Source of the DNA: Candidatus Omnitrophota bacterium
Lineage (GTDB): Bacteria > Omnitrophota > Gorgyraeia > Gygaellales > Profunditerraquicolaceae
Reading direction: 5' to 3'
Assembly: GCA_028716245.1 (NCBI GenBank)
Contig: JAQUQW010000005.1
Location: 288 to 64,287 of the forward strand
Length of the DNA stretch: 64,000 bases
The stretch's first letter is position 1. Each line of letters begins with the position of its first letter. Of this stretch, positions 1 to 15,946 are shown in pieces. The notes under the pieces were generated by a model. The model did no database searches and was not told the origin of the DNA. It saw only the letters and a program-made list of their open reading frames with translations. Position numbers and translations under genes: made by a program.

Positions 1-5
1 CACAT

Positions 6-76
6 TGCCCTGTCGTCTAATGGTAGGACACAAGATTCTGGATCTTGTTATCATGGTTCGAGTCCATGCGGGGCAG
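6..76 (+). tRNA. tRNA-Gln (anticodon CTG), 5' end at window edge
   Basis: Cloverleaf read by eye: acceptor TGCCCTG/CGGGGCA (one G-U), anticodon stem CAAGA/TCTTG with loop TTCTGGA, T-arm CATGG-TTCGAGT-CCATG. Confidence 0.7.
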
Positions 77-351
77 AAATAGTTTTAAAAATTTATTGAC
101 AAATAAAATATACTGAAGTAAACTTTTTTTAAAGAAGAACAGGTTCTCATACCGGGCAGAATTTAGACAGTAGCGAAAGCTACGGGACTTCTCTTGTTTT
201 TAAACATTTTAAAAGGATCCCAAAATATGAGAACTGGCGTCTTCTTTTTTTATTGCGATTTTTCAGCGTGGCCTTCCGAAAAGTTCTCATCTGAATCTTA
301 TCCAGCCTTTTTAAGTTTAATAAATAGCTTTGTAAGAAATCAAAAACACAG

Positions 352-1623
352 ATGAATATCTGGTCCAACCTTTTCTATAAATACCGTAAATTCTGGAAAG
401 CACTGAAATTATATTTATTGCTTGCTGGTCCGGGTATTATTGTAATGATTGCCGATAATGATGCCGGTGGTATTACAACGTATGCCGTAACCGGGGCTAA
501 ATATAAATATCATCTGCTTTGGTTTCTTATTCTTCTAGGCCCGATTGCTTATTTTGTCCAGGAAATGACCGTCCGCTTGGGAACCGTAACTAAGCGCGGT
601 CATGCTGAAGCTATTTTTCATTCTTTCGGACCTTTGTGGGGATGGTTTTCCTTACTAGATTTGGTTTTAACAGATTGGCTGACTTTGGTTACAGAATTTA
701 TTGGAATGACGGCAGCCATGAGCATTTTTCACATTCCACCGGTAATAACCGTAATCGTCGTATGCATAATAATGGGTGGAATGGTTATTCAGGGCCGTTA
801 CTGGACATGGGAAAAAATTGTCATGGTTTTTTGCGCTGTTAATTTGGTCTATATTCCTGCTGCCTTCATAGTGCATCCCTCGGTTAAAGATATTCTTTAT
901 AATAGTGTAATCCCGCATTTTCCTCCCGGTGGTTTTAATAATGAGATTTTCTTTATGTTGATGGCTAATATCGGGACTACCATTGCCCCTTGGATGATAT
1001 TCTTTCAACAAAGTGCCGTTGTAGACAAGAACATGAAAGAAAAAGACATGGGGTGGGGTAAACTCGATACCGCTCTGGGCTCACTTTTTACTGTACTGGT
1101 TGCAGTTTTTATTATTATCGTTACCGGAACTGTATTGTTTGGTCAAAATATCGAAAGCGCAGCTCAAGCTGCAATTCAGCTCATGAACGTAAATAAGAAT
1201 CTTGGGACGCTTTTAGCCATTGGACTTTTTGATGCTGGGTTATTGGGAGCTATTTGTATTTCTCTAGCTAGTTCATGGGCATTTGGCGAGGTTTTTGGCT
1301 GGGCGCATTCATTAAATCACAAGATCAAAGAAGCTCCGTGGTTTTACGCATTTTATTTTTTCGCTTTAGTTACGGCCGGAACAGTAGTTTTAATCCCCGG
1401 TGCTCCGCTAGTTTTAATTACACTCTTTGTTCAGGTAATCGCGGTTACTTTACTGCCTGCGGCGCTTGTTTTCTTAATCCTGCTTCTTAATGATGAAGGG
1501 ACGATGGGTAAATTCAAGAATACATTGCTTCAGAATACCGTTAATATTTCGATAGTAGCAGGTATAATTATTTTATCAACCTTATACGGAATCAGTGCGT
1601 TATTTCCGAATATTTTTAAGTAA
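352..1623 (+). CDS. Nramp (SLC11) family divalent-cation transporter, NRMT-like (probable Mg2+ transporter)
   Basis: 423 aa, ~11 TM. It aligns to MntH TM1/TM6, but the canonical DPGN is DAGG and MPH is APW. Asn-to-Gly and Met-to-Ala are the substitutions I recall for Nramp-related Mg transporters. A ~275 nt untranslated leader lies upstream. Confidence 0.75.
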   Translation: MNIWSNLFYKYRKFWKALKLYLLLAGPGIIVMIADNDAGGITTYAVTGAKYKYHLLWFLILLGPIAYFVQEMTVRLGTVTKRGHAEAIFHSFGPLWGWFSLLDLVLTDWLTLVTEFIGMTAAMSIFHIPPVITVIVVCIIMGGMVIQGRYWTWEKIVMVFCAVNLVYIPAAFIVHPSVKDILYNSVIPHFPPGGFNNEIFFMLMANIGTTIAPWMIFFQQSAVVDKNMKEKDMGWGKLDTALGSLFTVLVAVFIIIVTGTVLFGQNIESAAQAAIQLMNVNKNLGTLLAIGLFDAGLLGAICISLASSWAFGEVFGWAHSLNHKIKEAPWFYAFYFFALVTAGTVVLIPGAPLVLITLFVQVIAVTLLPAALVFLILLLNDEGTMGKFKNTLLQNTVNISIVAGIIILSTLYGISALFPNIFK

Positions 1624-1872
1624 CCTTTTGCAGGAGATAAATATGGGATTATCCTCAAATAGCTTTATTTTTAACCATATAAAAAAGTTTTTTAGTGATA
1701 CATTTTCTGCGATTCATGCAATTAATACCAAATATGCTACTCCGCAATTAAGGACAAGTAGGGCAGTAAAAATTGCTTTATTGTGTTTGCGGATTTATTT
1801 GATTGTCTTGGTTGGGTTGTTATTCTTCAAATTCTATACGACACTGACAGCCAAGTAAATTAGGGACTATCT

Positions 1873-3153
1873 ATGAACGAAACTAACCAGGTAAATAATA
1901 GGGAGATAGGAAAAAGCTATTTTTTAAGTGAAATAGTGAAACTACCGGTTTTCTTGCATGATAATAAAATCGGCAAGCTTACGGATTTTTTAATTGTAGA
2001 TAAAGATAAAATTGCGGAAGTAACGCATCTTTGTATTGCCCGGCCGTTTGGTGAGCCAGCCTTGCTTGTGCCCTGGGAAAAATTAAAATCTTTGTCGGAT
2101 AAAAATATTATTATCGATATTGAAACTATAGAACAATATACTGCTAACCCTCCAGAAGGAGCAATATTGTTAAAGGATTATATTCTCGATAAAAGAGTAC
2201 TTGATGGTGAGGGCAGAGAAGTAGAGATGGTTTATGATGTAAAATTAGTTTTAAAGAATAGTAAGTTATATGTTACCGATGTAGATTTAAGTAAATACGG
2301 CTTGCTTCGTAGAATTGGTTTAAAGTGGTTGGCCGATTTTATTTATAACCTAGCCGCAAAGATCAGGAGTCAGACAGTTTCATGGAGCTATGTTGAGCCG
2401 CTACCGGAACAAATCAGTAGTTTTAAAGGAGACCTTAAGTTAAAGGTGCTGAAAGAGAGGCTGGCTGATATGCCGCCAGTTGATTTGGCGGATATTCTGG
2501 AAGAAATGGATCCTGCTCAAAGAGTCGCTATATTCGGGGAGTTAGATACTGAGCATGCTTCTGATACCTTAGAAGAGTTAGACCCAAGGGTTCAGAGGGA
2601 CATGATAGCTTCACTGAAGAAGGAGCGTGCAGCACAGCTCATTAATGAGATGACTCCTGGACAGGCTGCGGATATTTTATCCGTATTGCCTTGGTGGGAG
2701 GTAAAAGCTATCCTACAATTGCTTAATAAAGAGAATGCGATTAAGATCCAGGATATTTTAGAGAAACAAGAAGAAAAGATTGTTGATTTTGCCGCAACAA
2801 ATTTTCTAAAATTTACTCCTGAGAGAACAGCTTTACAGGCGCGCAGGGCTTTTCAGCGGGCAGCTAAAGGTAAAGAAGCAATAATGTATCTTTATATTTT
2901 GGATGAACAGGAAAAATTATTAGGGGTAATAGATCTTAAAGAACTTTTAATAGCCGAAGATGAAGTTTTGCTTAAGGATGTTATGGTTTCCAAAGTAATT
3001 ATCCTTACTCCCGAAAGCACGCTGAAACAAGCTTCAGAAATGTTTGCAAGATATTCTTTTCGCGCGTTACCTATTATAGATAAATCCGGAAAAATGCTCG
3101 GAGTTGTTCCTTACCGAGATGTTATGAATTTGAAGCATCTTTATTTAGGATAG
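1873..3153 (+). CDS. Soluble MgtE N-terminal domain + CBS-pair protein (Mg2+-sensing regulatory module without a transmembrane domain)
   Basis: 426 aa. The central acidic helical region matches the MgtE_N signature (DMPPVDLADILEEMDPAQRVAIFGELD...). The C-terminal tandem CBS region reads VMVSKVIILTPEST...ALPIIDKSGKMLGVVPYRDVM. No TM segments. Confidence 0.65.
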   Translation: MNETNQVNNREIGKSYFLSEIVKLPVFLHDNKIGKLTDFLIVDKDKIAEVTHLCIARPFGEPALLVPWEKLKSLSDKNIIIDIETIEQYTANPPEGAILLKDYILDKRVLDGEGREVEMVYDVKLVLKNSKLYVTDVDLSKYGLLRRIGLKWLADFIYNLAAKIRSQTVSWSYVEPLPEQISSFKGDLKLKVLKERLADMPPVDLADILEEMDPAQRVAIFGELDTEHASDTLEELDPRVQRDMIASLKKERAAQLINEMTPGQAADILSVLPWWEVKAILQLLNKENAIKIQDILEKQEEKIVDFAATNFLKFTPERTALQARRAFQRAAKGKEAIMYLYILDEQEKLLGVIDLKELLIAEDEVLLKDVMVSKVIILTPESTLKQASEMFARYSFRALPIIDKSGKMLGVVPYRDVMNLKHLYLG

Positions 3154-3164
3154 AAGGAGGCTAC

Positions 3165-3350
3165 GTGCAAGCCATTTTAACTATTTTAGGAATAGCTGGG
3201 TTACTTTCTTTAATAGGTTGGCTTATAAAAATAGATAACACTCATAAAGACAATGAACTTTACCTCTATAAAGAAATTAAATATCTTAGGGTAGAAAACG
3301 CGAAGCTACAGGACAATATAAAGAATATACCTGCAAAGTGCATGGTTTAA
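3165..3350 (+). CDS. small membrane protein (1 TM + coiled coil), hypothetical
   Basis: 61 aa ORF with GTG start and a strong AGGAGG RBS 6 nt upstream; hydrophobic N-terminus. Confidence 0.45.
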   Translation: MQAILTILGIAGLLSLIGWLIKIDNTHKDNELYLYKEIKYLRVENAKLQDNIKNIPAKCMV

Positions 3351-3480
3351 ACCCCACCTTTTATTCCAAAGAATAAATTCAATAAACTGGAATCTACCTT
3401 CTGCTGGTCCAATCACAACTTGGACTGCAGATCTGTGTGGAAAGGGGAAGTTTCAGGCCCAGCCTTTTTTCTTTTATAAT

Positions 3481-4227
3481 ATGACAAGAGGCCAGTTTGA
3501 TCCTAAGGGTGATTATAAAGCTTTACCAGATGGTGATAAGCAATCCCAATATCAGGAACAAATTCTCTTGAAATATGGTTTTACAGATAATATAGAGCTG
3601 GCTGCCCAAACTATTTATCAACAGAATTATATTAAGCAAGGAAATTTAAGAGCGCATGACGCAGGTTTAGGCGATAGCCTTTTTCTGTTACGATATTGCA
3701 CTTGTCATGAAAAAGAAGAAGGATGGTTCCCAGATATTGACGGTATGCTTCAACTTAAAGTGCCAACTGGCAAGTATCAACATCTTGATCCAAACAAGCT
3801 AGGTACAGATTTAAATGGCGCTACTTCTAGTCCAGGAGCCTGGACACCAGGAATCGGCATAGATATGACTAAAAAGCTTAAACCCTTCATTCTTCATTTT
3901 GATTATATCTATAGTTTTCCGCGGGAGGTACGGGGTGATGGTGTTAATAGCGATTACGCTAATTTTATTAATTCCGATTTTTCTATAGAGTATTTTTTAA
4001 CCAAAGGTTTTAGCCTTATGTTAGAAGCAAATACTTTTTGGCAGAAGGATAAGTATCAGAATGGGACAAGACAACCATCCACAGGTATAAGATCTTTGAC
4101 TATTTCTCCTGGCATAGGCTGGGCAAATGATAAGATTCAGACAGAAATAGCATATCAAAGAGTTGTTCTGGGCAAAAACACAACCGCTAATGATTCAATA
4201 GTCTTAACTTTAGTATGTTCATTTTGA
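3481..4227 (+). CDS. outer-membrane beta-barrel-like protein, possibly N-terminally truncated or a pseudogene
   Basis: 248 aa rich in alternating aromatic beta-strand patterns, with a C-terminal ...LVCSF (terminal Phe typical of OMPs). No signal peptide. The frame stays open upstream without an ATG. Confidence 0.35.
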   Translation: MTRGQFDPKGDYKALPDGDKQSQYQEQILLKYGFTDNIELAAQTIYQQNYIKQGNLRAHDAGLGDSLFLLRYCTCHEKEEGWFPDIDGMLQLKVPTGKYQHLDPNKLGTDLNGATSSPGAWTPGIGIDMTKKLKPFILHFDYIYSFPREVRGDGVNSDYANFINSDFSIEYFLTKGFSLMLEANTFWQKDKYQNGTRQPSTGIRSLTISPGIGWANDKIQTEIAYQRVVLGKNTTANDSIVLTLVCSF

Positions 4228-4448
4228 AGCTTGAAAATATAACCTTAGTATTATGTTTATGGTATACTAAAATAGCCAGTTCTTTAGATAGCTGTTTCGC
4301 ATCTTCCGTATACAGCCAGTTGCATATTTTGTCCAATAGGCGCAGAGTAGGGATATATAGTATATTAGGGCTGGACTTAACCGTTTAGCCCTCTTTGCTT
4401 ATTCGCTAAATTGCTTGTAATTTTAGGATTAGAGAGGACAATGCATTT

Positions 4449-5216
4449 ATGACTAAAACGGCAAAAAATAGAGTTCCCCACATCATTTTCCTGTATTGGG
4501 TAATCAAAATAGTATCTACAACATTAGGAGAGACCGGTGCAGATATGTTTTCCATGACCTTTAATTTAGGCTATGGAGATACTGTTATGATATTTATGGC
4601 TCTGTTTCTTGTATTTCTTGCAATTAAACTTTCCTTGAGAGGGTACCACCCCTGGGTTTATTGGTTAACTTTCACCGCATCAGCTATCGCAGGGACCGCA
4701 ATATCTGATTTTATAGATCGTACATTAGGACTTGGTTATACATTGGGTTCTGCCGGTCTGATAGTGATGCTATTGATAGTCCTTGCAGTTTGGTATAAGA
4801 AGGAAAAGTCGATAAATGTAGAACATATTACTACGCCTACTGCGGAGATCTTTTATTGGACAGCATTTTTATTTGCAAATACATTGGGAACTGCCGCAGG
4901 GGATTTATTTGCTGATAACTTGGGGCTTGGATTTGCGCATAGTGCGATTGCGATATCCGTGGTACTTGTTATTGTAGCCCTACTACACTTCTATACCAAA
5001 GTCTCCAATGTATTGTTATTCTGGGTGGCTTTTGTTTTAACAAGGCCATTTGGCGCTACATTTGGAGATTTTCTTACTAAGCCCATTACGAAGGGTGGCA
5101 TTAACCTTGGTACAGTGAATTCTTCAATAGTTATTTGTATAATCTTATTTTTTGCAATTACTAAAGAGAATAAATTAGAAAAAGGGAGGTGGAAAATACC
5201 TAAACAGGAACTCTAA
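4449..5216 (+). CDS. hypothetical polytopic membrane protein with internal duplication
   Basis: 255 aa, ~6 TM. Two halves share a GETGADMF / GTAAGDLFAD motif. Confidence 0.5.
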   Translation: MTKTAKNRVPHIIFLYWVIKIVSTTLGETGADMFSMTFNLGYGDTVMIFMALFLVFLAIKLSLRGYHPWVYWLTFTASAIAGTAISDFIDRTLGLGYTLGSAGLIVMLLIVLAVWYKKEKSINVEHITTPTAEIFYWTAFLFANTLGTAAGDLFADNLGLGFAHSAIAISVVLVIVALLHFYTKVSNVLLFWVAFVLTRPFGATFGDFLTKPITKGGINLGTVNSSIVICIILFFAITKENKLEKGRWKIPKQEL

Positions 5217-5281
5217 CTTGTTTGTAATTCTGGGATCTGTGATAAAATACGTAAAGTTAAATAAACTAAAAGGAGGAAGCG

Positions 5282-5779
5282 ATGAAAGTGTCAAGAAATG
5301 TGTTTCTCGGGTTAGTCGTGGTGGGGATATTGGGTTTTGTTTCAGGGGTATCATTCGCAGAAACTGCAACATCAGCACCAGCGGCAACTCCAGTAGCAGC
5401 AGCAAAGAAAGCAAGACATGAAGCTAGAATTAAGCTTCTGCAGGATTCCGCAGCAGCTCTCCAGGTGACAAATCCAGATTTAGCAATAAAATTGACTGAT
5501 ATTGTGAACGGGCAGTCAAATGAGAAAGCGGAAGGCAGTAAAGAAAAAGTAGCAAAAGGTTCAGCTGAATGGAAAGCCAAACATGATGCAAGAATCCAGC
5601 TTTATAAAGATTCCGCAGCAGCTCTTCAAATTAATCATCCGGATTTAGCAAAGGGTTTAATGGCTTTGACAGTGCCAAAGCAGAAGACTGCAATGCAAAA
5701 GTCGGCTGAAGAAAAGAACGAGAAAGAAGAAACGGGGGAGAAGGTAGAGCCTAAATCAGAACAAGGCGAGACTAAATAA
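5282..5779 (+). CDS. secreted repeat protein, hypothetical
   Basis: Signal peptide, then two ~45 aa internal repeats (ARHEARIKLLQDSAAALQVTNPDLA / AKHDARIQLYKDSAAALQINHPDLA). RBS GGAGG upstream. Confidence 0.55.
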   Translation: MKVSRNVFLGLVVVGILGFVSGVSFAETATSAPAATPVAAAKKARHEARIKLLQDSAAALQVTNPDLAIKLTDIVNGQSNEKAEGSKEKVAKGSAEWKAKHDARIQLYKDSAAALQINHPDLAKGLMALTVPKQKTAMQKSAEEKNEKEETGEKVEPKSEQGETK

Positions 5780-5800
5780 AAGGACTGTTATATAGTAAAT

Positions 5801-5838
5801 AGCGGCAGGGCTAAAAAATCCTGCTGCTATTATTTTTA
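5801..5838 (+). terminator. rho-independent terminator-like hairpin
   Basis: AGCGGCAGG / CCTGCTGCT stem followed by a T-run ATTATTTTTATA. Confidence 0.5.
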
Positions 5839-5885
5839 TAAGTAATAAGTTGTAATTGTAATGCTCCCCATTAGTCAAGGGGTTT

Positions 5886-6488
5886 TCAAGTTAGAACCGG
5901 CTCTTTGTTGAGACACGTTTCAAAGCACTGTTTTGGCGTCATGTTGTTTAAGCTTTGATGCGGGTAATCCGTATTGTAGTTGTTGATCCATTTATTGAGC
6001 GCGATTTCAAAGTCAAACGGGTTATCCCAGTCATAGCACCAGACAATGTCTTCTTTGATGGTACGCATGACCCGTTCGGTATCAGAATTGCCTTTGGGAT
6101 TCGACCAGGTGGTGAATATCTGTTTGATTCCCATGACTGCGCAGTTCATCATGAATCGCTGGGACGTGGGTTGGCAGCCGTTGTCGGAGATCAAGAATAA
6201 CTGTTCTTTTTCCGTCTCTTGAATCCCCTTGGGGAATCGGGAATCAACCGCTCGGTTCAATGCTTTAAGCCAATCTTCGGTTTTAGACTGTAATCCAAGA
6301 TGGTAGCCGACAATCTCCTTGGTGTACCAGTTAAGAACCACGGTAAGATAGAGCCATCCCCAGCCGGTCATTTTGATTTTGGTCATATCAATACCCCAGA
6401 AGTGGTTAGGGCGAGCGGCATGAGGCTTGGGACGCAGAGGGGCATTAAATTTATCTCTAATAAGCCTAATTCTTGTAATTATCCCCAA
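5886..6488 (-). mobile_element. IS3-family transposase OrfB remnant (rve integrase core only; no OrfA/HTH)
   Basis: 200 aa with DDE/rve core motifs (HFWGIDMT..., ...SDNGCQ..., ...NPKGNSDTERVMRTIKEDIV...). The N-terminal ~90 aa and OrfA are absent. I could not identify flanking inverted repeats. Confidence 0.65.
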
Positions 6489-6674
6489 TTTCCTATATAA
6501 TTAGTTTATTAGTATTAAGAGATACAGTTATTACCTATAGCAACGCGCGCAGGATATAATTATATCTAATATTTGCAGGAGCAGGGCCATAAAAAATAGT
6601 ATTATGCAGGAAATTGTAGTATTATACGGAAGAAAGACTAGAACAATAAACAGCATAAAAAAGGAGGGAGCAGG

Positions 6675-7106
6675 ATGAAAACTGTTAAAACATTAGGGGC
6701 TGTCTTAGGTGTTTTTTTATTTCTCGGAGGGTATGTTTGTGCTCAAGCACAGTCAAATACCCAAACTCAACCAACCTCTACAGAACAGCCAGGTGTACGG
6801 AAACCACTAACCGTTGATGATGTGGTTCAAAAAATGAAAACAGATCTTGATTTAACCCAAGAGCAAGCAGACGCCCTTAAGCCCATTATTGAACAGAACA
6901 GGGCTAAACGAAAAGAACTCAGGGAAACCCTGAAACAGCAGGGGGCCGATAAAGATATTATCCTTAGTCAAATGAAAAAATTAACTCAGGAATTGGACCA
7001 GCAGTTAAGTAAAATCTTAAGTCAAGATCAGATGGATAAATTCAAAGCTATGAGAGTCCAGAGGAGTCTTCAGGGAGAAAAAAAACAAAGCGGGATGTCG
7101 CGCTGA
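6675..7106 (+). CDS. periplasmic Spy/CpxP-like (LTxxQ motif) protein
   Basis: Signal peptide, two LTQEQ / LSQDQ helical motifs, K/E-rich. Confidence 0.45.
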   Translation: MKTVKTLGAVLGVFLFLGGYVCAQAQSNTQTQPTSTEQPGVRKPLTVDDVVQKMKTDLDLTQEQADALKPIIEQNRAKRKELRETLKQQGADKDIILSQMKKLTQELDQQLSKILSQDQMDKFKAMRVQRSLQGEKKQSGMSR

Positions 7107-7156
7107 ATCCTGGCCGGGAACATTTCTGATTTTGCAAAAGAAAGAGAGATGCGGAG

Positions 7157-7621
7157 ATGAATAAATTTGGCATAGTTTTTTTGACTGCTTTATTTGGGGT
7201 ATTGTGCATTGGTTACGGGACTTCATATAGCGCAGATGGGCCGGAAGCAAAACAAAAGTTAATCGAGCAATTATTCAAAGAGGTGCCGCCAAAAGACGGC
7301 GTGAAAGAAATAACCTGCGAGCAGTTCCAGAAAATTCGTAACTCGGGAGCAGATTATGTCTTGGTCGATGTTTTATCGCCGGAAAGTTATGCGAAAGGCC
7401 ACATAGGGGGCGCCATTTCTTTTCCTGTTAAAACGATAGATGATAAAACCGTTTCCGCGAAATTGCCTAAGAATTTGTTTGTCGTTGTATACTGTGGTAG
7501 TTTTCAATGCCATGCAAGCACGATCGCCGCCAAGAAATTATCCGGGTTTGGATATAAGGTTTTCGATTATAAAGGTGGTTTAAGGGAGTGGCAGGAACGG
7601 GGGAACGCGCTTGTAAAATGA
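7157..7621 (+). CDS. secreted rhodanese-domain sulfurtransferase
   Basis: Signal peptide and a rhodanese fold with catalytic Cys loop (VVVYCGSFQCHAS). Confidence 0.7.
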   Translation: MNKFGIVFLTALFGVLCIGYGTSYSADGPEAKQKLIEQLFKEVPPKDGVKEITCEQFQKIRNSGADYVLVDVLSPESYAKGHIGGAISFPVKTIDDKTVSAKLPKNLFVVVYCGSFQCHASTIAAKKLSGFGYKVFDYKGGLREWQERGNALVK

Positions 7622-7633
7622 CGAGAATAAAAA

Positions 7634-8062
7634 ATGGCTAAGACGCAAGGGATCGAGAAGATCAGCCAGGAATCAAGAAGATCAAGCGCTTTTAAAGATT
7701 TAGCCGTGTTAGCTTCTGTTGTTATTGTTACCTTGTTGCTTTCCTATTTCTTCAATGTATTTATATTTCTTGTAGAGTTTTTTCAAAAACATCCCCAATC
7801 GATAACTTGGATAGATGAAATTATCACTGGTTTTTTAGCTTTAAGCATTGGTTTTGCGGTTTTCTCTTGGCGCAGATGGCGGGAACTAAAAAAGGAAACC
7901 ACTGAACGTTTAAGATTGCAAAAAGAACTCATTAGAATTGCCGAGACAAAAGCAGAAACCGAAAGAATTATTTGCAGAGAGCTTAAGTGTGACATTGAAG
8001 TGTATAAAAAGATCGAGCAAGATGTTATATCTGGTCAGGCTAAAGCAAAAGGAGTAACTTGA
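7634..8062 (+). CDS. hypothetical membrane protein
   Basis: 142 aa, two TM helices and a C-terminal coiled coil. Confidence 0.4.
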   Translation: MAKTQGIEKISQESRRSSAFKDLAVLASVVIVTLLLSYFFNVFIFLVEFFQKHPQSITWIDEIITGFLALSIGFAVFSWRRWRELKKETTERLRLQKELIRIAETKAETERIICRELKCDIEVYKKIEQDVISGQAKAKGVT

Positions 8063-8078
8063 TACAGAAGGAGGAAAA

Positions 8079-8516
8079 ATGCGAAGGAACTCGTTGGCAT
8101 TATTTATCGTTATGGTTTTTGTATTCGCCGGCTGTGAATCCGCCGGGCCAAAGACAGCCACAGGAGCGGTTGCCGGAGGGTTAATTGGCGCCACTGCCGG
8201 AGGCATAATCGGCTACCAAAGCCATAATGCCCTTGCCGGCGCCGGTATTGGCGCTGTAGCCGGAGCAGTTGGCGGCGGATTAATCGGAAACGCGATGGAC
8301 AAAAAAGATAAAGAAGCAAGCGCGGTTAATCCTTACTATATACCGGTAACCAAGGTCGTGGAAATGGTTTCCCAGGGCACTCCGGATTCGCTAATAATTA
8401 GCGAGATCCAGAGGACGCACTCAACCTATCGCCTTAGCTCAGAAGCCATCACTTATTTAAAAAAGAATAAAGTAAGCGACCAGGTTATCGATTATATGCT
8501 GGGAACAAGCAAGTAG
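8079..8516 (+). CDS. glycine-zipper lipoprotein
   Basis: Lipobox FAGC, GxxxG-rich segment GAVAGGLIGATAGGIIGY...GAGIGAVAGAVGGGLIGN, RBS GGAGG. Confidence 0.6.
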   Translation: MRRNSLALFIVMVFVFAGCESAGPKTATGAVAGGLIGATAGGIIGYQSHNALAGAGIGAVAGAVGGGLIGNAMDKKDKEASAVNPYYIPVTKVVEMVSQGTPDSLIISEIQRTHSTYRLSSEAITYLKKNKVSDQVIDYMLGTSK

Positions 8517-8552
8517 GTTTCTTTATTTGCCAAATAGAATTGTCAAAAATAA

Positions 8553-10268
8553 ATGGATGAAGGGATTACGATAAAAATTGCCGGCCAGGCCGGCCAGGGG
8601 ATCCAAACAATAGGCACCGCACTTTGTAATATCTTTAAAAGAAACGGGTCCCATATTTTTGCCAACCAGGATTATATGTCCAGGATACGCGGTGGAAATA
8701 ATTTTTTCCAGCTAAGGGTCTGCGGTAAACCAACCCATACTTTACGCCAAAAATCGGATATAACGGTAGCTTTGGATAAACAAAGCGTGCAATTGCACCG
8801 TAATGATGTTGCCAGCGGCGGGATTATTGTTTTTGATAAGGCTAAATTTAATCTTTCCGGAGAGGACAAAGTGCTTTTTAATATCCCATTCTATGATTTA
8901 GCCAATTCCATCGGTGGAAGCGACCTTTTTATCAATGCTGTTTGTTGCGGAGCAGTGGCAGGCCTGGCGCAGGTAAATCCGGATTGCCTTGAGCGGGCAA
9001 TCAGAGATTTATTCGCGGATAAAGACGAGGAAATTATCAGTAAGAACATAAAAGCAGCCCAGGCCGGTTATAATTTTGCCAAGGATAACTTTAGAAATGA
9101 TAAATTCAAGGTAGGATCAGCGCCGGCCGGAAAAAATTTATTAATGAATGGCAATGACGCGATCGCCCTGGGGGCAATCCGGGCAGGTTGTAAATTTTAT
9201 TCAGCCTATCCGATGAGCCCTTCGACAAGTATCATGAACGTAATCGCTAAGTATGCAAAGAGATTTAATATTTTGGTTGAGCAGGCAGAGGATGAAATTG
9301 CCGCCATCAATATGGTTATCGGCGCCTCTTTTGCCGGAGCCCGCTCAATGACCGCTACTTCCGGAGGAGGACTGGCTTTGATGGTCGAGGGATTGAGCCT
9401 TGCCGCAATGACCGAAACGCCCATTGTTGCCGTTGATGCCCAGCGTCCGGCGCCGGCTACGGGATTCCCTACGCGTACCGAACAAGCAGATTTGAATTTT
9501 CTTATTCACGCCGGGCACGGTGAGTTTGCCAAGGCAATCTATGCTCCCGGCACTATCCAGGAGGCTTTTTATCTGACAGTTAAAGCATTTAATACCGCGG
9601 AAAAATACCAGATTCCGGTTTTGATCATGACCGACCAGCATCTGGCGGATTCGCTGCAGGATATTGAAGGGTTTGATTTAAATAAAGCTGGCGTGCAAAG
9701 GTTTATTATATCAAAAGAAGATTCTCAGAAAGCGTCCGGTTATAAAAGATACCAATTAACTGACTCTGGGATATCCCCGCGGGCTATCCCTTCTTGGATT
9801 GAGGATGTTATCTATGCTGATAGTGATGAGCATAATGAAGAGGGGCATATCACCGAAGATGCGGATACGCGCATACAAATGGTGAAGAAAAGATTTTTTA
9901 AAAAGATGGCCGGGCTTAGGCAAGAGATAGAGAAGCCGACTCTATATAATGCGCAGAAGGCGCAAACTCTCCTGTTGGGGTTTGGTTCAACCTACGGGGT
10001 ATTAAAAGAAGCTTCCGAGGCTTTGGGTAAAGATTTCGGGTTTGTGCATTTATCGCAAGTATGGCCATTCCCCGGTTTGGAATTAAGCCCATTGCTAAAA
10101 AATAAGAAGAAGATTTTAACGGTAGAAAATAACGCAGGCGGCCAGCTTGCCGGACTGCTGATGCGGGAAACAGGCATTAAAGCCGACAACTCCATATTAC
10201 GGTATGATGGAAGGCCGTTTAATCTGGATCAGCTTATTGAACAAATAAAAGAAATACAAAATCAATGA
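8553..10268 (+). CDS. korA: 2-oxoacid:ferredoxin oxidoreductase, fused gamma-alpha subunit
   Basis: 571 aa with an N-terminal POR gamma-like domain, then an alpha domain (YPMSPST..., AINMVIGASFAGARSMTATSGGGLALM). The adjacent beta subunit makes a 2-subunit OFOR. Confidence 0.8.
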   Translation: MDEGITIKIAGQAGQGIQTIGTALCNIFKRNGSHIFANQDYMSRIRGGNNFFQLRVCGKPTHTLRQKSDITVALDKQSVQLHRNDVASGGIIVFDKAKFNLSGEDKVLFNIPFYDLANSIGGSDLFINAVCCGAVAGLAQVNPDCLERAIRDLFADKDEEIISKNIKAAQAGYNFAKDNFRNDKFKVGSAPAGKNLLMNGNDAIALGAIRAGCKFYSAYPMSPSTSIMNVIAKYAKRFNILVEQAEDEIAAINMVIGASFAGARSMTATSGGGLALMVEGLSLAAMTETPIVAVDAQRPAPATGFPTRTEQADLNFLIHAGHGEFAKAIYAPGTIQEAFYLTVKAFNTAEKYQIPVLIMTDQHLADSLQDIEGFDLNKAGVQRFIISKEDSQKASGYKRYQLTDSGISPRAIPSWIEDVIYADSDEHNEEGHITEDADTRIQMVKKRFFKKMAGLRQEIEKPTLYNAQKAQTLLLGFGSTYGVLKEASEALGKDFGFVHLSQVWPFPGLELSPLLKNKKKILTVENNAGGQLAGLLMRETGIKADNSILRYDGRPFNLDQLIEQIKEIQNQ

Positions 10269-11128
10269 ATATAAACGACTTAAAGAGCAATGATGAAATC
10301 GCTTGGTGCCCCGGCTGCGGAGATTTTGGAATTTTAAATGCCTGCAAAAAAGCCCTGACTGCGATTAATAAACAGCCTAAGGATATTTTATTTGTCTCCG
10401 GAATCGGCCAGGCAGCCAAGTTGCCGCACTATATAAGGTGCAATTGTTTTAACGGCCTTCACGGCAGAGCCCTGCCTGCTGCCGCGGGCGCAAAAATTGC
10501 CAACAATAATTTAACTGTAATTGTTACCACCGGCGACGGGGATTGTTATGGCGAAGGAGGCAATCATCTTTTGCATAATATCCGCAGGAATGTGGATATA
10601 ACCGTTATTGTTTGCAATAATCAAATTTACGGTCTCACTAAGGGGCAGGCTTCACCGACTACCGATCTAGGATATGAAACCAAGGTTCAGGTCGATGGCG
10701 TAGTCTTGGAACCTTTGCATCCGCTGGAGATGGCTATTGCTTTAGGCTGCGGGTTCGTTGCCCGGGGGTATTCAGCCGATTCTGAGCATCTTTCTTGGCT
10801 GATAACCGAAGGGATAAAACATAAAGGGTTTTCCTTGATTGATGTATTACAACCTTGTGTTAGCTTTAATAAAAAAAATACTTATGAATGGTACGCCAAG
10901 AGGGTATATAAAGTAAATGCCGATGCCTCGTATAACCCCCAGGATAAGGCAGCCGCATATCAGAAAGCAGCACAGTGGGGGGAGAAGATCCCCATCGGTT
11001 TAATTTATCGGCAGGAGAAGGAAACGTATGAGGATAGAAGAGGGATGAATAGAAAAAACTCTTTGATTAATGAAGACATTAAAGATATAGATATAAGTAA
11101 GGAGCTGGGAGAATTTATTTATCCTTGA
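10265..11128 (+). CDS. korB: 2-oxoacid:ferredoxin oxidoreductase beta subunit (TPP-binding)
   Basis: 287 aa; TPP motif VTTGDGDCYGEGGNHL; 4 nt overlap with korA. Confidence 0.8.
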   Translation: MNINDLKSNDEIAWCPGCGDFGILNACKKALTAINKQPKDILFVSGIGQAAKLPHYIRCNCFNGLHGRALPAAAGAKIANNNLTVIVTTGDGDCYGEGGNHLLHNIRRNVDITVIVCNNQIYGLTKGQASPTTDLGYETKVQVDGVVLEPLHPLEMAIALGCGFVARGYSADSEHLSWLITEGIKHKGFSLIDVLQPCVSFNKKNTYEWYAKRVYKVNADASYNPQDKAAAYQKAAQWGEKIPIGLIYRQEKETYEDRRGMNRKNSLINEDIKDIDISKELGEFIYP

Positions 11129-11231
11129 TTCCTCTTGTTTTATTCATTATTTAGAGTAAAATAGTTTTAGTTAAGATATTTAGAACAATTAAACTGTCCC
11201 TTTCCGGAATAAAATCCGCGTATTTATTATA

Positions 11232-11519
11232 ATGAAAAAAATATTTTTACTAAAAATTGTCTTGATTGTTATTATCGCTATTTCCTTGGCTACTTTTTTT
11301 AAGGCCAGCTATGATAATGATGATTCAACGCTTGATTTCTTATCCGGCTGCAATAAATTTTTATTATACGCATGTTTTTTATTGATTTTATTGCCTTGCA
11401 TCGGCGTATCTTATGTAAGTATCGACAATTTTACCTATTCGGAATTACTTGTTTCTTATTTATCGAGCAAGGAAAAGTCGCCTCCCCTTTTAATTTTTGC
11501 GCAATACCCTAAAATATAA
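11232..11519 (+). CDS. hypothetical small membrane protein
   Basis: 95 aa ORF, 2 TM. Confidence 0.3.
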   Translation: MKKIFLLKIVLIVIIAISLATFFKASYDNDDSTLDFLSGCNKFLLYACFLLILLPCIGVSYVSIDNFTYSELLVSYLSSKEKSPPLLIFAQYPKI

Positions 11520-11559
11520 TTATTTCCTAAGCTAAATTCAATACTAGAAGGAGTTTAAT

Positions 11560-11853
11560 ATGAAAAGGACAAATTTAACTTTATTTGGGTTCATAGTTAC
11601 CTTGGTTGTCGGGTTGACATTAGCGTTCTCGCAAAAAACATTATTAGCTCAACAAGATAGAGCTAAAGAAACAACCACGGCCAAAAGTTCTTCTAAGGAA
11701 CCGAAAAAAAGCAAGCACAAGATTAAGAAGCTGCTGAAAAAAGGAAATAAAAGCGCAGAATTAAAAGAGAGCAAGAAAACGCAAACGAAGGAAATACCGA
11801 AAGCAGATAAGAAAGAGGTTGGAGAAAAAATAGACGCTAAAAAGGATAAATAA
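11560..11853 (+). CDS. lysine-rich secreted protein, hypothetical
   Basis: Signal peptide, K/E-rich tail, RBS AGGAG. Confidence 0.4.
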   Translation: MKRTNLTLFGFIVTLVVGLTLAFSQKTLLAQQDRAKETTTAKSSSKEPKKSKHKIKKLLKKGNKSAELKESKKTQTKEIPKADKKEVGEKIDAKKDK

Positions 11854-11905
11854 AAAACCGAAATAAGGATAGTTTAGGGGTACTAATTATAAGGAAAGGA
11901 CTAGA

Positions 11906-12319
11906 ATGAAAAAGATACTTTTTACATTAATTGCGGTTACATTTATTAACTCTCTGTGTTTCGCCCAGCAGGAATCAACAGCAGCCAAAGAGCCTCAAAA
12001 ACCAGCTGGATCGGCAACTGCGCCTGTCGCGGTGGCTCCTGTTTCTGTTCCGGCTCCGGTTCTAAGTAAAAGTATTACCGGTAAAGTTGAGACGGTATCA
12101 ATTGGCGACCTCAGTAAAGGGATAAAACCGGAGATTGTGGTTATCGGCGAAGACGGCCAAAAACTGAGTTTGGTAGTAAAGCCCGGTACTCCTATTGTTG
12201 CCAAAGATACAAAAATAATCACTCTAACGGAAATAAAGAAGGACGATAAAGTTACCGTAGAGTATATAACTAAGCAATCCGGTACTCACAGGGCAGAGTC
12301 GATCAAATTAGTAGAATAA
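11906..12319 (+). CDS. secreted protein, hypothetical
   Basis: Signal peptide and a P/A-rich linker; RBS AAGGAAAGGA. Confidence 0.45.
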   Translation: MKKILFTLIAVTFINSLCFAQQESTAAKEPQKPAGSATAPVAVAPVSVPAPVLSKSITGKVETVSIGDLSKGIKPEIVVIGEDGQKLSLVVKPGTPIVAKDTKIITLTEIKKDDKVTVEYITKQSGTHRAESIKLVE

Positions 12320-12330
12320 TAAAATTATTA

Positions 12331-12369
12331 TAGATTACGGCACGGGATAATCGTGCCTGCCGTAATCTA
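12331..12369 (+). terminator. strong intergenic hairpin (TAGATTACGGCACG...CGTGCC.GCCGTAATCTA), possible terminator or repeat
   Basis: ~13 bp stem read by eye; no T-tract follows. Confidence 0.35.
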
Positions 12370-12375
12370 AAAGCC

Positions 12376-13311
12376 ATGAAAACAAAAACCACTTTTTTAT
12401 TAATTTTCATTATTATTTTTGGGATAGTTGTGTTTTTTTCATATAAGGCATATAAGATATATGAAGAAAATTTGAGTTTCAATAGGGAACAATGTATCCT
12501 TAACAAGAAAAAAGAGGGGTGGTTGCGCCTCAAGAAGAGCCTTGAGAACAAAATCGGGAATTTTAAAGGCGAGGTTGGTTTAGTGGTTGAAGATTTAAAT
12601 ACAGGGTGGGTAATCTCGTTTAATGAGGATACTTTAATCCCCTCAGCAAGCTTGGTCAAGGTTCCCATCATGCTTTCTTATTTTTATGCTGCCCAGGAAG
12701 ACAAGGTCAATCTTAAAGACAATATAAAACTTAAATCTTTTGAGATGGTGTCCGGTTCAAAGGTGCTGGGAAAATTTCCGGTTGGCTCTCAATTTATGGT
12801 TGAAGAATTATTTGATCCGATGATTACCGTAAGTGATAATGCCGCCGCAAACGCGTTGATAGATTTATTGGGGTTTGATACCTTGAACGCATATTTTAAG
12901 AAAATGGGATTAAAAAATACTAATATTGCCCGCAATATGTTAGATTTTAGAGGCAGAAGAGAAGGCCAGGAAAATTATACTACTGCCGCTGATATGGCGT
13001 ATATATTGGAAAAGCTTTACCGCCGGCAGTTTTTAAATCAGGAAATATCTGAGAAGTGCCTCCTCCTGTTGAACCAGCAGAAGATTAATGACCGCATTCC
13101 CAGAGATCTTCCTAAAGACGAGGTTTCTGTCGCGCATAAGACGGGCCTAGAAAGGCATATTTGCCACGATGCGGGAATAGTGTATACCCAGAAAGGTAAT
13201 TTTTTAATCTGTGTTTTGGTAAAACATGGGAACAGGTATGCCTTGCCCGCCAAGAAGCTGATTTCCGATATCGCGTTATCCACCTACAATTACTATAAAA
13301 ACTTTAATTAA
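12376..13311 (+). CDS. class A beta-lactamase-like serine hydrolase with N-terminal membrane anchor
   Basis: SxxK (SLVK), SDN, and KTG (HKTGLE) motifs in class A order and spacing; N-terminal TM helix. Confidence 0.6.
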   Translation: MKTKTTFLLIFIIIFGIVVFFSYKAYKIYEENLSFNREQCILNKKKEGWLRLKKSLENKIGNFKGEVGLVVEDLNTGWVISFNEDTLIPSASLVKVPIMLSYFYAAQEDKVNLKDNIKLKSFEMVSGSKVLGKFPVGSQFMVEELFDPMITVSDNAAANALIDLLGFDTLNAYFKKMGLKNTNIARNMLDFRGRREGQENYTTAADMAYILEKLYRRQFLNQEISEKCLLLLNQQKINDRIPRDLPKDEVSVAHKTGLERHICHDAGIVYTQKGNFLICVLVKHGNRYALPAKKLISDIALSTYNYYKNFN

Positions 13312-13390: not shown

Positions 13391-15946
13391 ATGGTAATTA
13401 AAGAAGAAGAATTGAAAAATATTCAAGGTCTTACCGAGAAAGAGGCCTTGGAGAGCATTAAAAAATACGGCTATAATGAAATCCCCTCTCAGAAAAAGCG
13501 CAGTATTTTTGTAATATTCTTTAGCGTGGTAAAAGAACCCATGCTGCTTCTGTTAATCGGAAGCGGGCTGATTTATCTATTTTTAGGTGAACCAAAAGAT
13601 GCCTTGATGTTGCTTTCTTTTGTATTCGCGGTGGTGGGTATCACCTTTTATCAGGAGAGAAAAACCGAAAGGACTTTGGAGGCTTTACGGGACCTTTCCA
13701 GCCCCAGGGCTTTGGTTATCCGCGACGGAATCCGCAGAAGAATCGCCGGAGGCCAGGTGGCCAAGGGTGACATTATAATTCTTCAAGAAGGAGACCGGGT
13801 CCCTGCCGACGCTATGATCATATCCTGTTCTAATTTATCAGTAGATGAATCTTTGTTAACCGGAGAATCGGTGGCTGTGCGTAAATGTGAATGGGATGGA
13901 GAAGTCAGCATTAAAAGGCCGGGCGGGGATGACCTTCCCTTTGTCTATTCAGGAACTTTAGTCGTGGCCGGGCGGGGCCTGGCAAAAGTCAGCTCTATCG
14001 GGATGCATACTGAAATGGGTAAAATCGGCCGCTCCCTGCAGAGTATTCGTCAAGAGGATACTCTTTTGCAAAAAGAAATAGGAAAAATTGTGCGTAATTT
14101 TTCTATTGCCGGAGTAATACTTTGTTTATTGGTAATCGTGCTTTACGGTTTGTCGCGCGGGAACTGGTTAAACGGCGTTCTTTCCGGCTTAACCTTGAGC
14201 ATGGCGATGCTGCCGGAAGAGTTTCCGGTAGTTTTAATCATCTTCCTTACTTTAGGCGCCTGGAGAATTTCCAAAAGCCAGGTCTTGACCAGGCGTACCC
14301 CGGCCATCGAAACCCTGGGGGCAGCCACGGTTTTGTGCACGGATAAGACCGGAACGCTTACTCTCAATGCCATGCGTTTAACTGCCCTGTGCGTTAACGG
14401 TGTTCATTATGATGTCGGGGTTAAAAAATCTGACGGCTTACCGGAAGCAGTGCATAATCTTATGGAATATGCTATTTTGGCCAGCCAAAAAGATCCTTTT
14501 GACCCGATAGAAAAAGAAGTAAAACGCTTGGGTGAGCTTTATTTGTTAGGCTCTGAACATATCCATAATAACTGGAGGATGATCAAAGAATATTCCTTAT
14601 CTAAGGAGCAATTGGCTTTATCTCATGTCTGGGAATCTCCGGATAAACAAAATTATATTATTGCCGCCAAGGGATCTCCCGAGGCAATCGCTGACCTTTG
14701 CCATCTTAATAAAGAACAGTATGCCCGATTAGTTAAATGCGTAGAAGAGATGGCCAGGCGGGGATTGCGTATTTTAGGGGTAGCCAGGGCATCTTTTAGA
14801 AAAAAAGAACTTCCGGATTTACAGCATGATTTCACATTTGAGCTGGTGGGTTTACTGGGATTCATCGACCCGGTGCGGCCGGCTGTTACTTCCGCTATCA
14901 GGGAAGCCCATGACGCGGGTATGCGCGTGATTATGGTTACCGGAGATTATCCGGGTACCGCTATCCATATTGCCAGAGAGATCGGCTTAAAAAACCCTGA
15001 GACTTATATAACCGGGCAGGAACTGGAGGAAATGGATCACCTTGTGCTCAGGGAAAGGATAAAAACAGTGAATATCTTTGCCCGGGTGGTTCCCGAGCAA
15101 AAATTGTTTATTATCAACGCCTTGAAAGCTAACCAGGCGATTGTAGCCATGACCGGAGACGGGGTTAACGATGCCGCGGCTCTAAAATCGGCAGATATCG
15201 GTATTGCTATGGGGGAGCGGGGCACGGATGTGGCTCGTGAGGCGTCAGCATTGGTATTGCTTAATGATGATTTTTCATCGATTGTGCAGGCAGTCAAGCT
15301 TGGCAGGAGGATTTTTGATAACCTGAAGAAAGCCATTGCCTATATTTTTGCCATCCATGTGCCGATTGCCGGGATGTCATTTTTACCGGTTTTGTTTAAT
15401 TTACCGATCGTGCTTTTGCCCGCGCACATCGCTTTTTTGGAATTGATTATCGATCCGGCATGCTCCACGGTTTTTGAAGCCTGTCCCGATGAGAATAATA
15501 TCATGAATAGGCCGCCGCGCAATTTGCGGGAATCCTTATTTAGTAAAAAGGCGTTTATTTTCAGCCTGCTGCAAGGGCTGGGCATATTAACCGTAGTGTT
15601 TTTGGTATTCATGTTGGCATTATATCTGAAGAAAGGGGAACTGGAGGCGCGCACATTATCTTTTACCACCCTGGTGTTTGCCAATATAATGCTAATTATA
15701 ACCAATCTTTCCTGGTCTAAAAATCTGGCCGGTATTCTTAAAGCGAAGAATAAAGCCTTGTGGGTGGTGGTATTAGCGGCAATAAGCGCGCTTTTCTTGG
15801 TGATTTATCTTCCGGTATTACGCAACCTCTTCCATTTTTCCGTTTTATCCGCGGCGGATTTATTAATCACTTTGGCCAGCGGGGTGGTAAGTTTATTGTG
15901 GTTTGAAGGTTTTAAGGCGTTGAATAAGAATAGGATGACAGTATAA
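13391..15946 (+). CDS. P-type cation-transporting ATPase (type II-like)
   Basis: 851 aa with DKTGTLT phosphorylation motif, TGDGVNDAAAL hinge, and ~10 TM. Confidence 0.9.
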   Translation: MVIKEEELKNIQGLTEKEALESIKKYGYNEIPSQKKRSIFVIFFSVVKEPMLLLLIGSGLIYLFLGEPKDALMLLSFVFAVVGITFYQERKTERTLEALRDLSSPRALVIRDGIRRRIAGGQVAKGDIIILQEGDRVPADAMIISCSNLSVDESLLTGESVAVRKCEWDGEVSIKRPGGDDLPFVYSGTLVVAGRGLAKVSSIGMHTEMGKIGRSLQSIRQEDTLLQKEIGKIVRNFSIAGVILCLLVIVLYGLSRGNWLNGVLSGLTLSMAMLPEEFPVVLIIFLTLGAWRISKSQVLTRRTPAIETLGAATVLCTDKTGTLTLNAMRLTALCVNGVHYDVGVKKSDGLPEAVHNLMEYAILASQKDPFDPIEKEVKRLGELYLLGSEHIHNNWRMIKEYSLSKEQLALSHVWESPDKQNYIIAAKGSPEAIADLCHLNKEQYARLVKCVEEMARRGLRILGVARASFRKKELPDLQHDFTFELVGLLGFIDPVRPAVTSAIREAHDAGMRVIMVTGDYPGTAIHIAREIGLKNPETYITGQELEEMDHLVLRERIKTVNIFARVVPEQKLFIINALKANQAIVAMTGDGVNDAAALKSADIGIAMGERGTDVAREASALVLLNDDFSSIVQAVKLGRRIFDNLKKAIAYIFAIHVPIAGMSFLPVLFNLPIVLLPAHIAFLELIIDPACSTVFEACPDENNIMNRPPRNLRESLFSKKAFIFSLLQGLGILTVVFLVFMLALYLKKGELEARTLSFTTLVFANIMLIITNLSWSKNLAGILKAKNKALWVVVLAAISALFLVIYLPVLRNLFHFSVLSAADLLITLASGVVSLLWFEGFKALNKNRMTV

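Follow-up and report, generated by a model that had tools for sequence, protein, structure and literature searches.

Analysis was performed for a stretch of 64,000 nucleotides (nt) from a Candidatus Omnitrophota bacterium (assembly GCA_028716245.1, contig JAQUQW010000005.1, positions 288 to 64,287 of the forward strand), hereinafter the window, whose first nucleotide is position 1. Near its beginning, behind a structured leader RNA, the window contains genes encoding a putative transporter of the NRMT (Nramp-related magnesium transporter) clade, a small membrane protein and a partner protein with PRC, MgtE_N and CBS domains, all on the same strand:

352-1623, plus strand: NRMT gene, 423 amino acids (aa), from the list of open reading frames (ORFs)
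1643-1858, plus strand: gene of the small single-pass membrane protein, 71 aa, from the gene call in the Logan assembly
1873-3153, plus strand: gene of the PRC / MgtE_N / CBS partner, 426 aa, from the ORF list

The intergenic gaps of this cassette are 19 and 14 nt. With moderate confidence, the region is regarded here as one operon for a three-component NRMT system with sensor gating and an attenuator leader.

An earlier note on this DNA had placed two ORFs at 352-1623 and 1873-3153, coordinates which agree with the ORF list, and had described them as a two-gene Mg2+ pair, with the MgtE_N-CBS gene directly behind that of the transporter. The two genes do lie close together on one strand, but the gene of the 71-aa protein intervenes, the set comprises three genes, and the pairing of a transporter with an MgtE fragment is not new. 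Shin et al. 2014 (PMC4072509), who named NrmT, reported that a gene for MgtE's cytoplasmic N-terminal domain, of unknown function, adjoins most members and that many mgtE-nramp operons are under M-box riboswitches; feedback regulation or chaperone activity was put forward for the partner. The window shares with these operons, represented by Ca_c0685/Ca_c3329 of C. acetobutylicum and ACP_2976/2977 of A. capsulatum, an Nramp-related gene together with a gene for the MgtE cytoplasmic domain. In the published operons the partner is located upstream (mgtE-nramp), no small third gene, PRC domain or alternative leader is mentioned, and some members of the family, among them 11 orthologues of the window cassette, have an M-box, whereas the window has none. 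New relative to published data are an undescribed, widely conserved small membrane protein, very likely a transporter subunit, and a leader matching no known family.

Relatives of the partner were sought in one genome per GTDB species; 291 were found, and the best 80 loci were analyzed (related loci are designated by L numbers). In every one of these best 80 of 291 loci with enough flanking sequence, the NRMT gene, the small ORF and the partner gene follow in this order on one strand, with identities to the window proteins of 67-84% for NRMT and 52-72% for the partner. Among them are Omnitrophota, Acidobacteriota, Chloroflexota, Actinomycetes, Lentisphaerota and Krumholzibacteria, as well as the archaeal Methanomicrobiales, Thermoplasmatota and Aenigmarchaeota, and further groups. 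No conserved fourth gene was detected: when the neighboring ORFs were clustered, no family reached more than 13 loci. Since order and strand are the same in every related locus with enough flank, the three-gene arrangement, as read from these genomes, is not a matter of chance, and the evidence for its conservation and for the gene fusions described below is strong.

The small protein has one transmembrane (TM) helix, a motif IN.KY..P.I in its N-terminal part and a motif LR.YL...YKF in the C-terminal TM helix. The small ORF was found in 78 of the 78 related loci with enough sequence, both bacterial and archaeal; its family consensus is f....f..i.eIN.KYa.P.Ikmt..v..aLl.LR.YL..Lv..L.YKF.tl, and the median gap between its stop and the start of the partner gene in these loci is 14 nt. 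No Pfam or NCBIfam family matches the small protein, and a word-index protein search returned four close relatives only. A profile search against 1.84 billion representatives matched at least 150 clusters (50% identity), 35 of them at E<=1e-10, and nearly all the matches were stand-alone proteins of 46-86 aa.

Fusions of the small protein to the transporter were found in two lineages. In P0344, a single ORF running from the edge of contig L092, the C-terminal half of NRMT leads into one extra TM helix, which a linker joins to the small-protein module; 10 nt after this ORF the partner gene begins. P0358, of a different lineage, has a similar layout, comprising the NRMT C-terminus, an extra TM helix and the small module. 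The N-terminus of Nramp proteins is cytoplasmic, and the 2022 structure paper on the Eggerthella transporter EleNRMT reportedly gives 11 helices for proteins of that type; with one extra fusion helix, the chain is therefore back in the cytoplasm when it enters the small module. The topology predicted for the small protein accordingly places its N-terminus and conserved motif in the cytoplasm, its last helix in the membrane and its C-terminus outside. Fusion to the C-terminus of NRMT argues for the small protein being a physical part of the transporter; it is very likely an NRMT subunit and probably a docking site. KdpF, MgtS and MgtR are also single-pass proteins of less than 80 aa, encoded with cation transporters or acting on them; to our knowledge, none of them is related in sequence to the small protein. 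The family from the window differs from these proteins in spanning bacteria and archaea, in carrying a conserved cytoplasmic motif and in occurring fused to the transporter. A likeness of the small protein to TM1 of MgtE, or to the tail of the Eggerthella partner, is visible by eye but detected by no model, and homology is not claimed.

At the native EleNRMT locus, a PRC / MgtE_N / CBS partner of 450 aa is encoded 3 nt upstream of the transporter gene (L090:3645-4997). This Eggerthella-type partner ends in its own predicted TM helix (residues 416-450), and the small ORF is absent from the locus. The partner is not mentioned in the 2022 EleNRMT structure paper (PMC8806188). The two systems are thus alike in having a PRC / MgtE_N / CBS partner gene next to the transporter gene, and differ in order and anchoring: in Eggerthella the partner is upstream and has its own TM helix with no small ORF, while in the window the order is transporter, small TM protein and TM-less partner. 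Because the partner is membrane-anchored in the Eggerthella type and accompanied by a separate or fused membrane module elsewhere, the small subunit may serve to recruit the soluble sensor; it is from such co-occurrence that we infer the docking step.

The transporter was assigned to the Pfam family Nramp at 1.2e-72. In a phmmer search against all PDB sequences its best match was EleNRMT (7qia, 5.4e-64), while the best DraNramp chain scored 6.4e-10 and the Mn2+ Nramps 6e-10 or worse. The TM1 stretch reads ADNDAGGITTY and the TM6 stretch IGTTIAPWMIFFQQS. In the phmmer alignments, the DAGG of TM1 falls on DPGN in DraNramp and on DAGG (D55/G58) in EleNRMT, and the APW of TM6 on MPH in DraNramp and on APW (A227/W229) in EleNRMT. 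The site residues of the window protein correspond as follows:

D37: EleNRMT D55; in canonical Nramp, Asp of DPGN
G40: EleNRMT G58; in canonical Nramp, Asn of DPGN
E115: EleNRMT E133
T209: EleNRMT T224; in canonical Nramp, Ala
A212: EleNRMT A227; in canonical Nramp, Met
W214: EleNRMT W229; in canonical Nramp, the first proton-pathway His
Q219: EleNRMT N234; in canonical Nramp, the second proton-pathway His
Q361: EleNRMT Q379

Across 65 full-length orthologues of other genomes, all eight positions vary little or not at all; in particular, D37 and G40 are invariant, T209 is Thr in 65 of 65, and A212 is Ala in 63 of 65. The roles of the corresponding EleNRMT residues were described by Ramanadane et al. 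2022 (PMC8806188), where Thr224 weighs most for Mg2+ and the mutation T224A abolished Mg2+ transport while Mn2+ transport was kept. Both proton-pathway histidines of helix 6b are replaced in the window transporter (W214 and Q219), which fits uncoupled transport. Thus, the SLC11 fold, the site signature D, G, T, A, Q, E and the Trp in place of the proton-pathway His are common to the window protein and EleNRMT, with a difference at the second His position, which is Gln in the former and Asn in the latter. The view that the DAGG and APW changes are diagnostic of NRMT is borne out by the alignment with EleNRMT and DraNramp, which puts both on metal-coordinating positions and not outside them; the Asn, Met and His changes listed earlier are real, but the change of Ala to Thr at T209 had been overlooked. 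These data argue strongly for placing the 423-aa protein in the NRMT clade of SLC11, where, since its identity to native EleNRMT is only 36%, it appears on a distant branch. In a metagenome-assembled genome (MAG) of Methanomicrobiales, the NRMT match lies in two overlapping pieces in different frames (L056:3486-4749), which probably reflects a frameshift (pseudogene or sequencing error).

The partner protein is represented by the following regions:

residues 15-83: PRC barrel (Pfam)
residues about 95-165: beta-rich conserved region and amphipathic helix (lower confidence in the AlphaFold2 model)
residues 163-191: conserved linker, modelled as disordered (AlphaFold2 model and family alignment)
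residues 200-300: MgtE_N (Pfam, 1.1e-23)
residues 303-422: CBS pair (Pfam)

A hydropathy scan of the partner revealed no hydrophobic segment and Pfam no MgtE TM domain; the protein ends right after the second CBS domain. Its earlier description as a TM-less MgtE_N and CBS protein is therefore correct, with the N-terminal PRC barrel missing from the domain list. Against PDB sequences, cytosolic domains of MgtE were matched at 4.5e-23 to 4.6e-21. The AlphaFold2 model has a pLDDT of 76, with a confident PRC barrel, and a Foldseek search with this model placed MgtE cytoplasmic domains on top. Identity of the partner is 52-79% across bacterial and archaeal phyla. Pfam gives no support for a second PRC barrel at residues 95-165, and none is claimed.

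Regulatory Mg2+ sites of T. thermophilus MgtE (PMC5882242) and its ATP-contact residues (PMC5529423) were mapped to the partner by family alignment, with the register corrected by hand and the numbering of the MgtE sequence verified with the residues given in PMC5882242. Three of the six regulatory Mg2+ ligands checked are kept, namely, E59 (D231), D95 (D267, invariant) and D247 (D416, invariant). The ATP contacts Y170 (Y339, invariant), R187 (K356), D188 (E357) and F227 (F396) are kept in kind, and in the family alignment the acidic MgtE_N signature D204, E210, EE234-235 and D267 is invariant. In MgtE, ATP tunes the sensitivity to Mg2+ (PMC5529423). Compared with the MgtE channel (T. thermophilus; Hattori 2007/2009), the partner has an N domain and CBS pair of the same fold, with some Mg2+ ligands and most ATP contacts, but lacks the plug helix and the five-helix pore domain and adds an N-terminal PRC region; the transport path in the window is an unrelated LeuT-fold carrier encoded in trans. 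The homology to MgtE, the three ligands and the four ATP contacts make the earlier proposal of a Mg2+/nucleotide-sensing module credible, while the remaining three ligands and the adenine contact N203 do not bear it out; with only three of the six regulatory positions acidic, the partner is to be called a Mg2+ sensor only provisionally.

A link of the cassette type to Mg2+ is given by its orthologues. In 11 loci, of Acidobacteriota, Actinomycetes and Chloroflexota, the Rfam M-box (RF00380) was found at gathering score on the same strand upstream of the orthologous cassette. By the logic of Shin et al., an M-box ahead of orthologous cassettes ties this cassette type to Mg2+, and we consider this link good, as far as it can be drawn from the orthologues. 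EleNRMT carries both Mg2+ and Mn2+ (PMC8806188), and selectivity between the two ions lies beyond what sequence alone can settle; Mg2+ transport by the window protein is presumed on the basis of homology. Two of the M-box loci have individual features. Two M-box copies with equal scores, 616 nt apart, are present at one NRMT cassette in L045 (2412-2636 and 3028-3252); either the riboswitch is a tandem one, or the segment is repeated directly or was duplicated in assembly. In an Anaerolineales MAG, a separate protein of 171 aa, CBS-pair-like by sequence, is encoded between the M-box and the NRMT gene (L076:2890-3405).

The leader of the window (about 128-257) is of another kind. The distance from the end of the upstream tRNA-Gln gene to the ATG at 352 is about 275 nt, as noted earlier, and contains the following elements:

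5-77: tRNA-Gln, upstream of the cassette on the same strand
96-124, plus strand: promoter-like site (TTGACA, 17 nt spacer, TAAACT; 10/12 match)
130-195, plus strand: conserved leader core (covariance model R1, 76.7 bits)
134-137 and 188-191, plus strand: P1, GAAG paired with CTTC
about 139-157 and 184-188, plus strand: invariant unpaired stretches, CAGGTTCTCATACCGGGC and GGGAC
170-183, plus strand: hairpin B, GTAGC-GAAA-GCTAC
131-251, plus strand: long-range terminator-like helix (RNAfold, RNAalifold)

The 5' strand of the terminator helix consists of AAAGAAGA (131-138) and GGTTCTCATA (142-151), and the 3' strand of TATGAGAACT (226-235) and TCTTCTTT (240-247), followed by a T-run at 245-251. 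The leader 5' strand, of about 20 nt, includes a strand of P1, and the segment complementary to it lies about 100 nt downstream, before the U-run; the terminator helix and P1 are mutually exclusive, which points to the logic of a riboswitch or attenuator. RNAfold gave the window leader a minimum free energy of -33.5 kcal/mol (z = -2.8), and the RNAalifold consensus agrees; these two programs are the basis of the helix in the window, while a duplex test with shuffles covers the other five copies, in which the 5' strand pairs with the segment before the U-run over 15-19 bp, matched by 0-7 of 300 shuffles. In L089, the long helix contains a compensatory change of C:G to U:A.

The window leader was first matched to L015 by blastn of upstream regions, and a pattern scan together with the covariance model yielded six distinct copies. 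The R1 model scores 60-88 bits in the five other distinct loci and finds nothing else in 831 kb. Four copies precede NRMT cassettes (window, L015, L002 and L089), that of L085 is located at a contig end, and that of L082 precedes a P2-type cation ATPase gene. A pattern scan of metagenomes found four stretches, two of them identical to L015, and an exact-pattern scan of viral contigs found none. The closest relatives, namely, L086, L088, L094 and L096, have short upstream spacers, and the leader was not found in them; the contig of L095 begins inside the NRMT gene. All six copies start a few bases past a TTGACA/TAxAAT-like promoter, with TTGACA...TAxAAT at equal distance before the leader in L015, L002, L082, L085 and L089; the count of promoter-like matches in the region itself equals the shuffle expectation.

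Across the copies, the unpaired CAGGUUCUCAUAYCGGGC and GGAC are invariant and two hairpins are present; P1 is GGAAG:CUUCC or AGAAG:CUUCU, and one hairpin is wholly re-paired in L002. In an alignment of only six sequences that was fitted to the model, pairing holds in 94% of the cells, both sides change in five pairs, and the covariation score is reached in 0 of 500 shuffles. No Rfam 15 family, including M-box and yybP-ykoY (RF00080), was detected in the leader region 77-351, even at E<=10 (scans of 77-360 and 1-3600); these scans, like one of the whole window at the gathering threshold, yielded tRNAs and noise only. Thus, of the earlier suggestion that the leader may hold a riboswitch, the structured and conserved character stands, while both named candidates are absent. 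The leader has the same genomic position as the M-box, the 5' leader of an NRMT cassette, and the same output, an intrinsic terminator, but shows no match to it in sequence or structure, is shorter (its conserved core spans about 65 nt) and forms its terminator with the extreme 5' end. An unpaired core that is conserved, stems that covary, a terminator exclusive with P1 and a link to a coherent set of genes are all seen, in six distinct sequences only, and are suggestive of a ligand-sensing riboswitch.

Past the U-run, the window (270-291) and L015 (about 3405-3425) have in common CTTCCGAAA(A/-)(G)TTCTC. Within it is a second copy of the GTTCTCAT element, which could pair in yet another alternative way or have a role in controlling translation. 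In L089, an ORF of 47 aa, zinc-ribbon-like (weak match to Zn_ribbon_TFIIS), follows the leader and extends over the start of the NRMT gene (1025-1168).

Homologies, site residues, gene order, fusions, orthologue M-boxes, and leader conservation and pairing are the results from which we infer the substrate, a physical complex of the three proteins, regulation by the partner and the response of the leader to a ligand. By homology to EleNRMT, the transporter would import largely hydrated Mg2+ (and Mn2+) with no proton coupling. The 71-aa protein would be a membrane subunit of the transporter, with its N-terminus inside and C-terminus outside, and the 426-aa partner a soluble cytoplasmic module with homology to the gate domain by which the MgtE channel senses Mg2+/ATP. 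The partner would most likely dock on the transporter, probably via the small subunit's conserved cytoplasmic motif on one side and the partner's PRC and linker regions on the other, and, once docked, may throttle transport in response to cytosolic Mg2+ and/or adenine nucleotide; complex formation and gating are plausible from the gene arrangement and domain content. Transcription would begin about 220 nt upstream of the cassette and run through the structured leader, whose 5' strand would either close the small core or build the long terminator helix before the U-run. The attenuator would thus occupy the place where orthologous cassettes hold an M-box Mg2+ riboswitch.

A number of observations weigh against this reading. 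The leader of the window itself contains no M-box; its type is represented by six distinct copies only, with a nearly invariant core, and also stands ahead of a P-type ATPase that matches Ca2+/Mn2+ pumps best, a context that fits a Mg2+ import regulon poorly. The window proteins are only 36% (transporter) and 27% (partner) identical to the native Eggerthella proteins. Three of the six regulatory Mg2+ ligands of MgtE checked are lost in the partner, namely, D91 (G263), D226 (S395; S/G in the family) and D250 (N419), and the adenine contact N203 is not kept (V372). In the experiments of Shin et al., the co-expressed A. capsulatum partner left complementation unchanged, and A. capsulatum NrmT rescued Mn2+ deficiency better than Mg2+ deficiency (PMC4072509). 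That protein acted mainly in Mn2+ transport, so a good capacity for Mg2+ is not shared by all members of the clade.

One alternative, whose chances we put somewhat below even, is a leader that acts as an ordinary attenuator or terminator and lacks a ligand-sensing aptamer, reflecting control by a protein or small RNA, a tRNA terminator or a recent horizontal transfer. The low number of copies with their near-invariant core and thin covariation, the lack of the leader in L086, L088, L094 and L096 with their short spacers, and the similarity of the window and L015 outside the core as well, as expected after transfer, count in its favor, and a simple terminator scan gave no call. Against it, a promoter-like site stands just ahead of the leader in six of six copies, and a tRNA lies upstream only in the window. 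The downstream genes belong to two unrelated types of cation transporter, and it is the unpaired nucleotides that are conserved while the stems vary: hairpin B is re-paired in L002, P1 alternates between A-U and G-C, and the L089 change in the long helix is compensatory. In addition, the leader is located at the position of the M-box in orthologous cassettes. A more far-reaching joint reading is tentative and less likely than not: the leader would represent an undescribed class of cation-responsive riboswitch replacing the M-box, and the cassette a three-subunit holo-transporter with an MgtE-derived sensor docked on a LeuT-fold carrier. With the same reserve, the leader would in that case also control the P2A-type ATPase, and the subunit of 60-75 aa would dock the sensor.

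It is rather unlikely that the partner, instead of being a Mg2+ gate, senses adenine nucleotides (the energy state), helps in assembly or stability of the transporter, or serves it as a metal chaperone. The presence of a PRC barrel, a generic domain for protein interaction, counts in favor of such a function, as does the retention of the ATP contacts Y170, R187, D188 and F227 (with Y339 invariant) alongside the loss of several Mg2+ ligands. The partner had no measurable effect in the sole published test, and chaperone activity was also raised by Shin et al. However, the acidic signature of MgtE_N is strongly conserved, with D204, E210, EE234-235 and D267 invariant, and three positions of the Mg2+ sites are retained; as ATP in MgtE tunes the Mg2+ sensitivity (PMC5529423), nucleotide sensing and Mg2+ gating are compatible.

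It is improbable that the cassette serves mainly Mn2+, or divalent cations broadly, with a partner sensing Mn2+ or another ion. In favor of this, EleNRMT moves Mn2+ besides Mg2+ (PMC8806188), a defect in Mn2+ transport was fully rescued by A. capsulatum NrmT, which rescued Mg2+ only at millimolar levels, half of the checked MgtE Mg2+ ligands are lost, and the LMCA1/PMR1-type (Ca2+/Mn2+) ATPase is a recurrent neighbor sharing the leader type in L082. Against it, Thr209 is invariant and mutation of its EleNRMT counterpart abolished Mg2+ and not Mn2+ transport, 11 orthologous cassettes lie behind M-box Mg2+ riboswitches, and the yybP-ykoY Mn2+ riboswitch was not found at any locus scanned.

The P2-type cation ATPase, of about 851 aa in the window, has its best matches among Listeria LMCA1 and PMR1/SPCA-type Ca2+/Mn2+ pumps. 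Its copies are located as follows:

window, 13391-15946, plus strand
L015:6383-8941
L094:5694-end
L095:4002-end
L082:1952-end, behind the leader RNA

The ATPase gene begins 153 nt past the partner gene in L015 and 1.2-1.4 kb past it in L094 and L095. The ATPase of the window, 58% identical to that of L015, has no leader copy ahead of it. In the window it is preceded by a Beta-lactamase2 gene (12376-13311), as in L094, where the order is partner, Beta-lactamase2, DUF2062 and ATPase; in the window, the Beta-lactamase2 and ATPase genes are about 9 kb from the partner. The interval (3153-12376) contains genes of an outer-membrane protein, DUF347, rhodanese and 2-oxoacid:ferredoxin oxidoreductase, and a transposase fragment, judged from its translation, at 5886-6488 on the minus strand. 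The presence of this fragment within the interval suggests that an insertion or rearrangement split an older neighborhood in the window.

An ORF of 61 aa at 3165-3350 (plus strand), with a hydrophobic N-terminal helix, begins 11 nt past the partner gene and was called in the Logan assembly; none of the related loci yielded a homologue. The window (5-77), L006 (3399-3476) and L090 (3325-3405) each have a tRNA gene immediately upstream of the cassette, on its strand. Such adjacency was considered as a sign of an island and rejected, since only L006 among the 60 related loci scanned shows a tRNA; the proximity is probably a coincidence.

For the family as a whole, the favored reading of a three-component operon offers a model for coupling a soluble MgtE-type sensor to an SLC11 carrier, the role of the partner having been a question since 2014. 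In this clade the partner is always accompanied by the small membrane protein, sometimes fused to the transporter, while the Eggerthella partner is self-anchored. The M-boxes of orthologues support Mg2+ as the relevant ion in a clade to which many anaerobic, uncultured bacteria and archaea contribute. A new metal or ion riboswitch class would be added if the leader binds a ligand. If the three-subunit reading is true, the gating domain of a channel would have moved as a module to an unrelated transporter.

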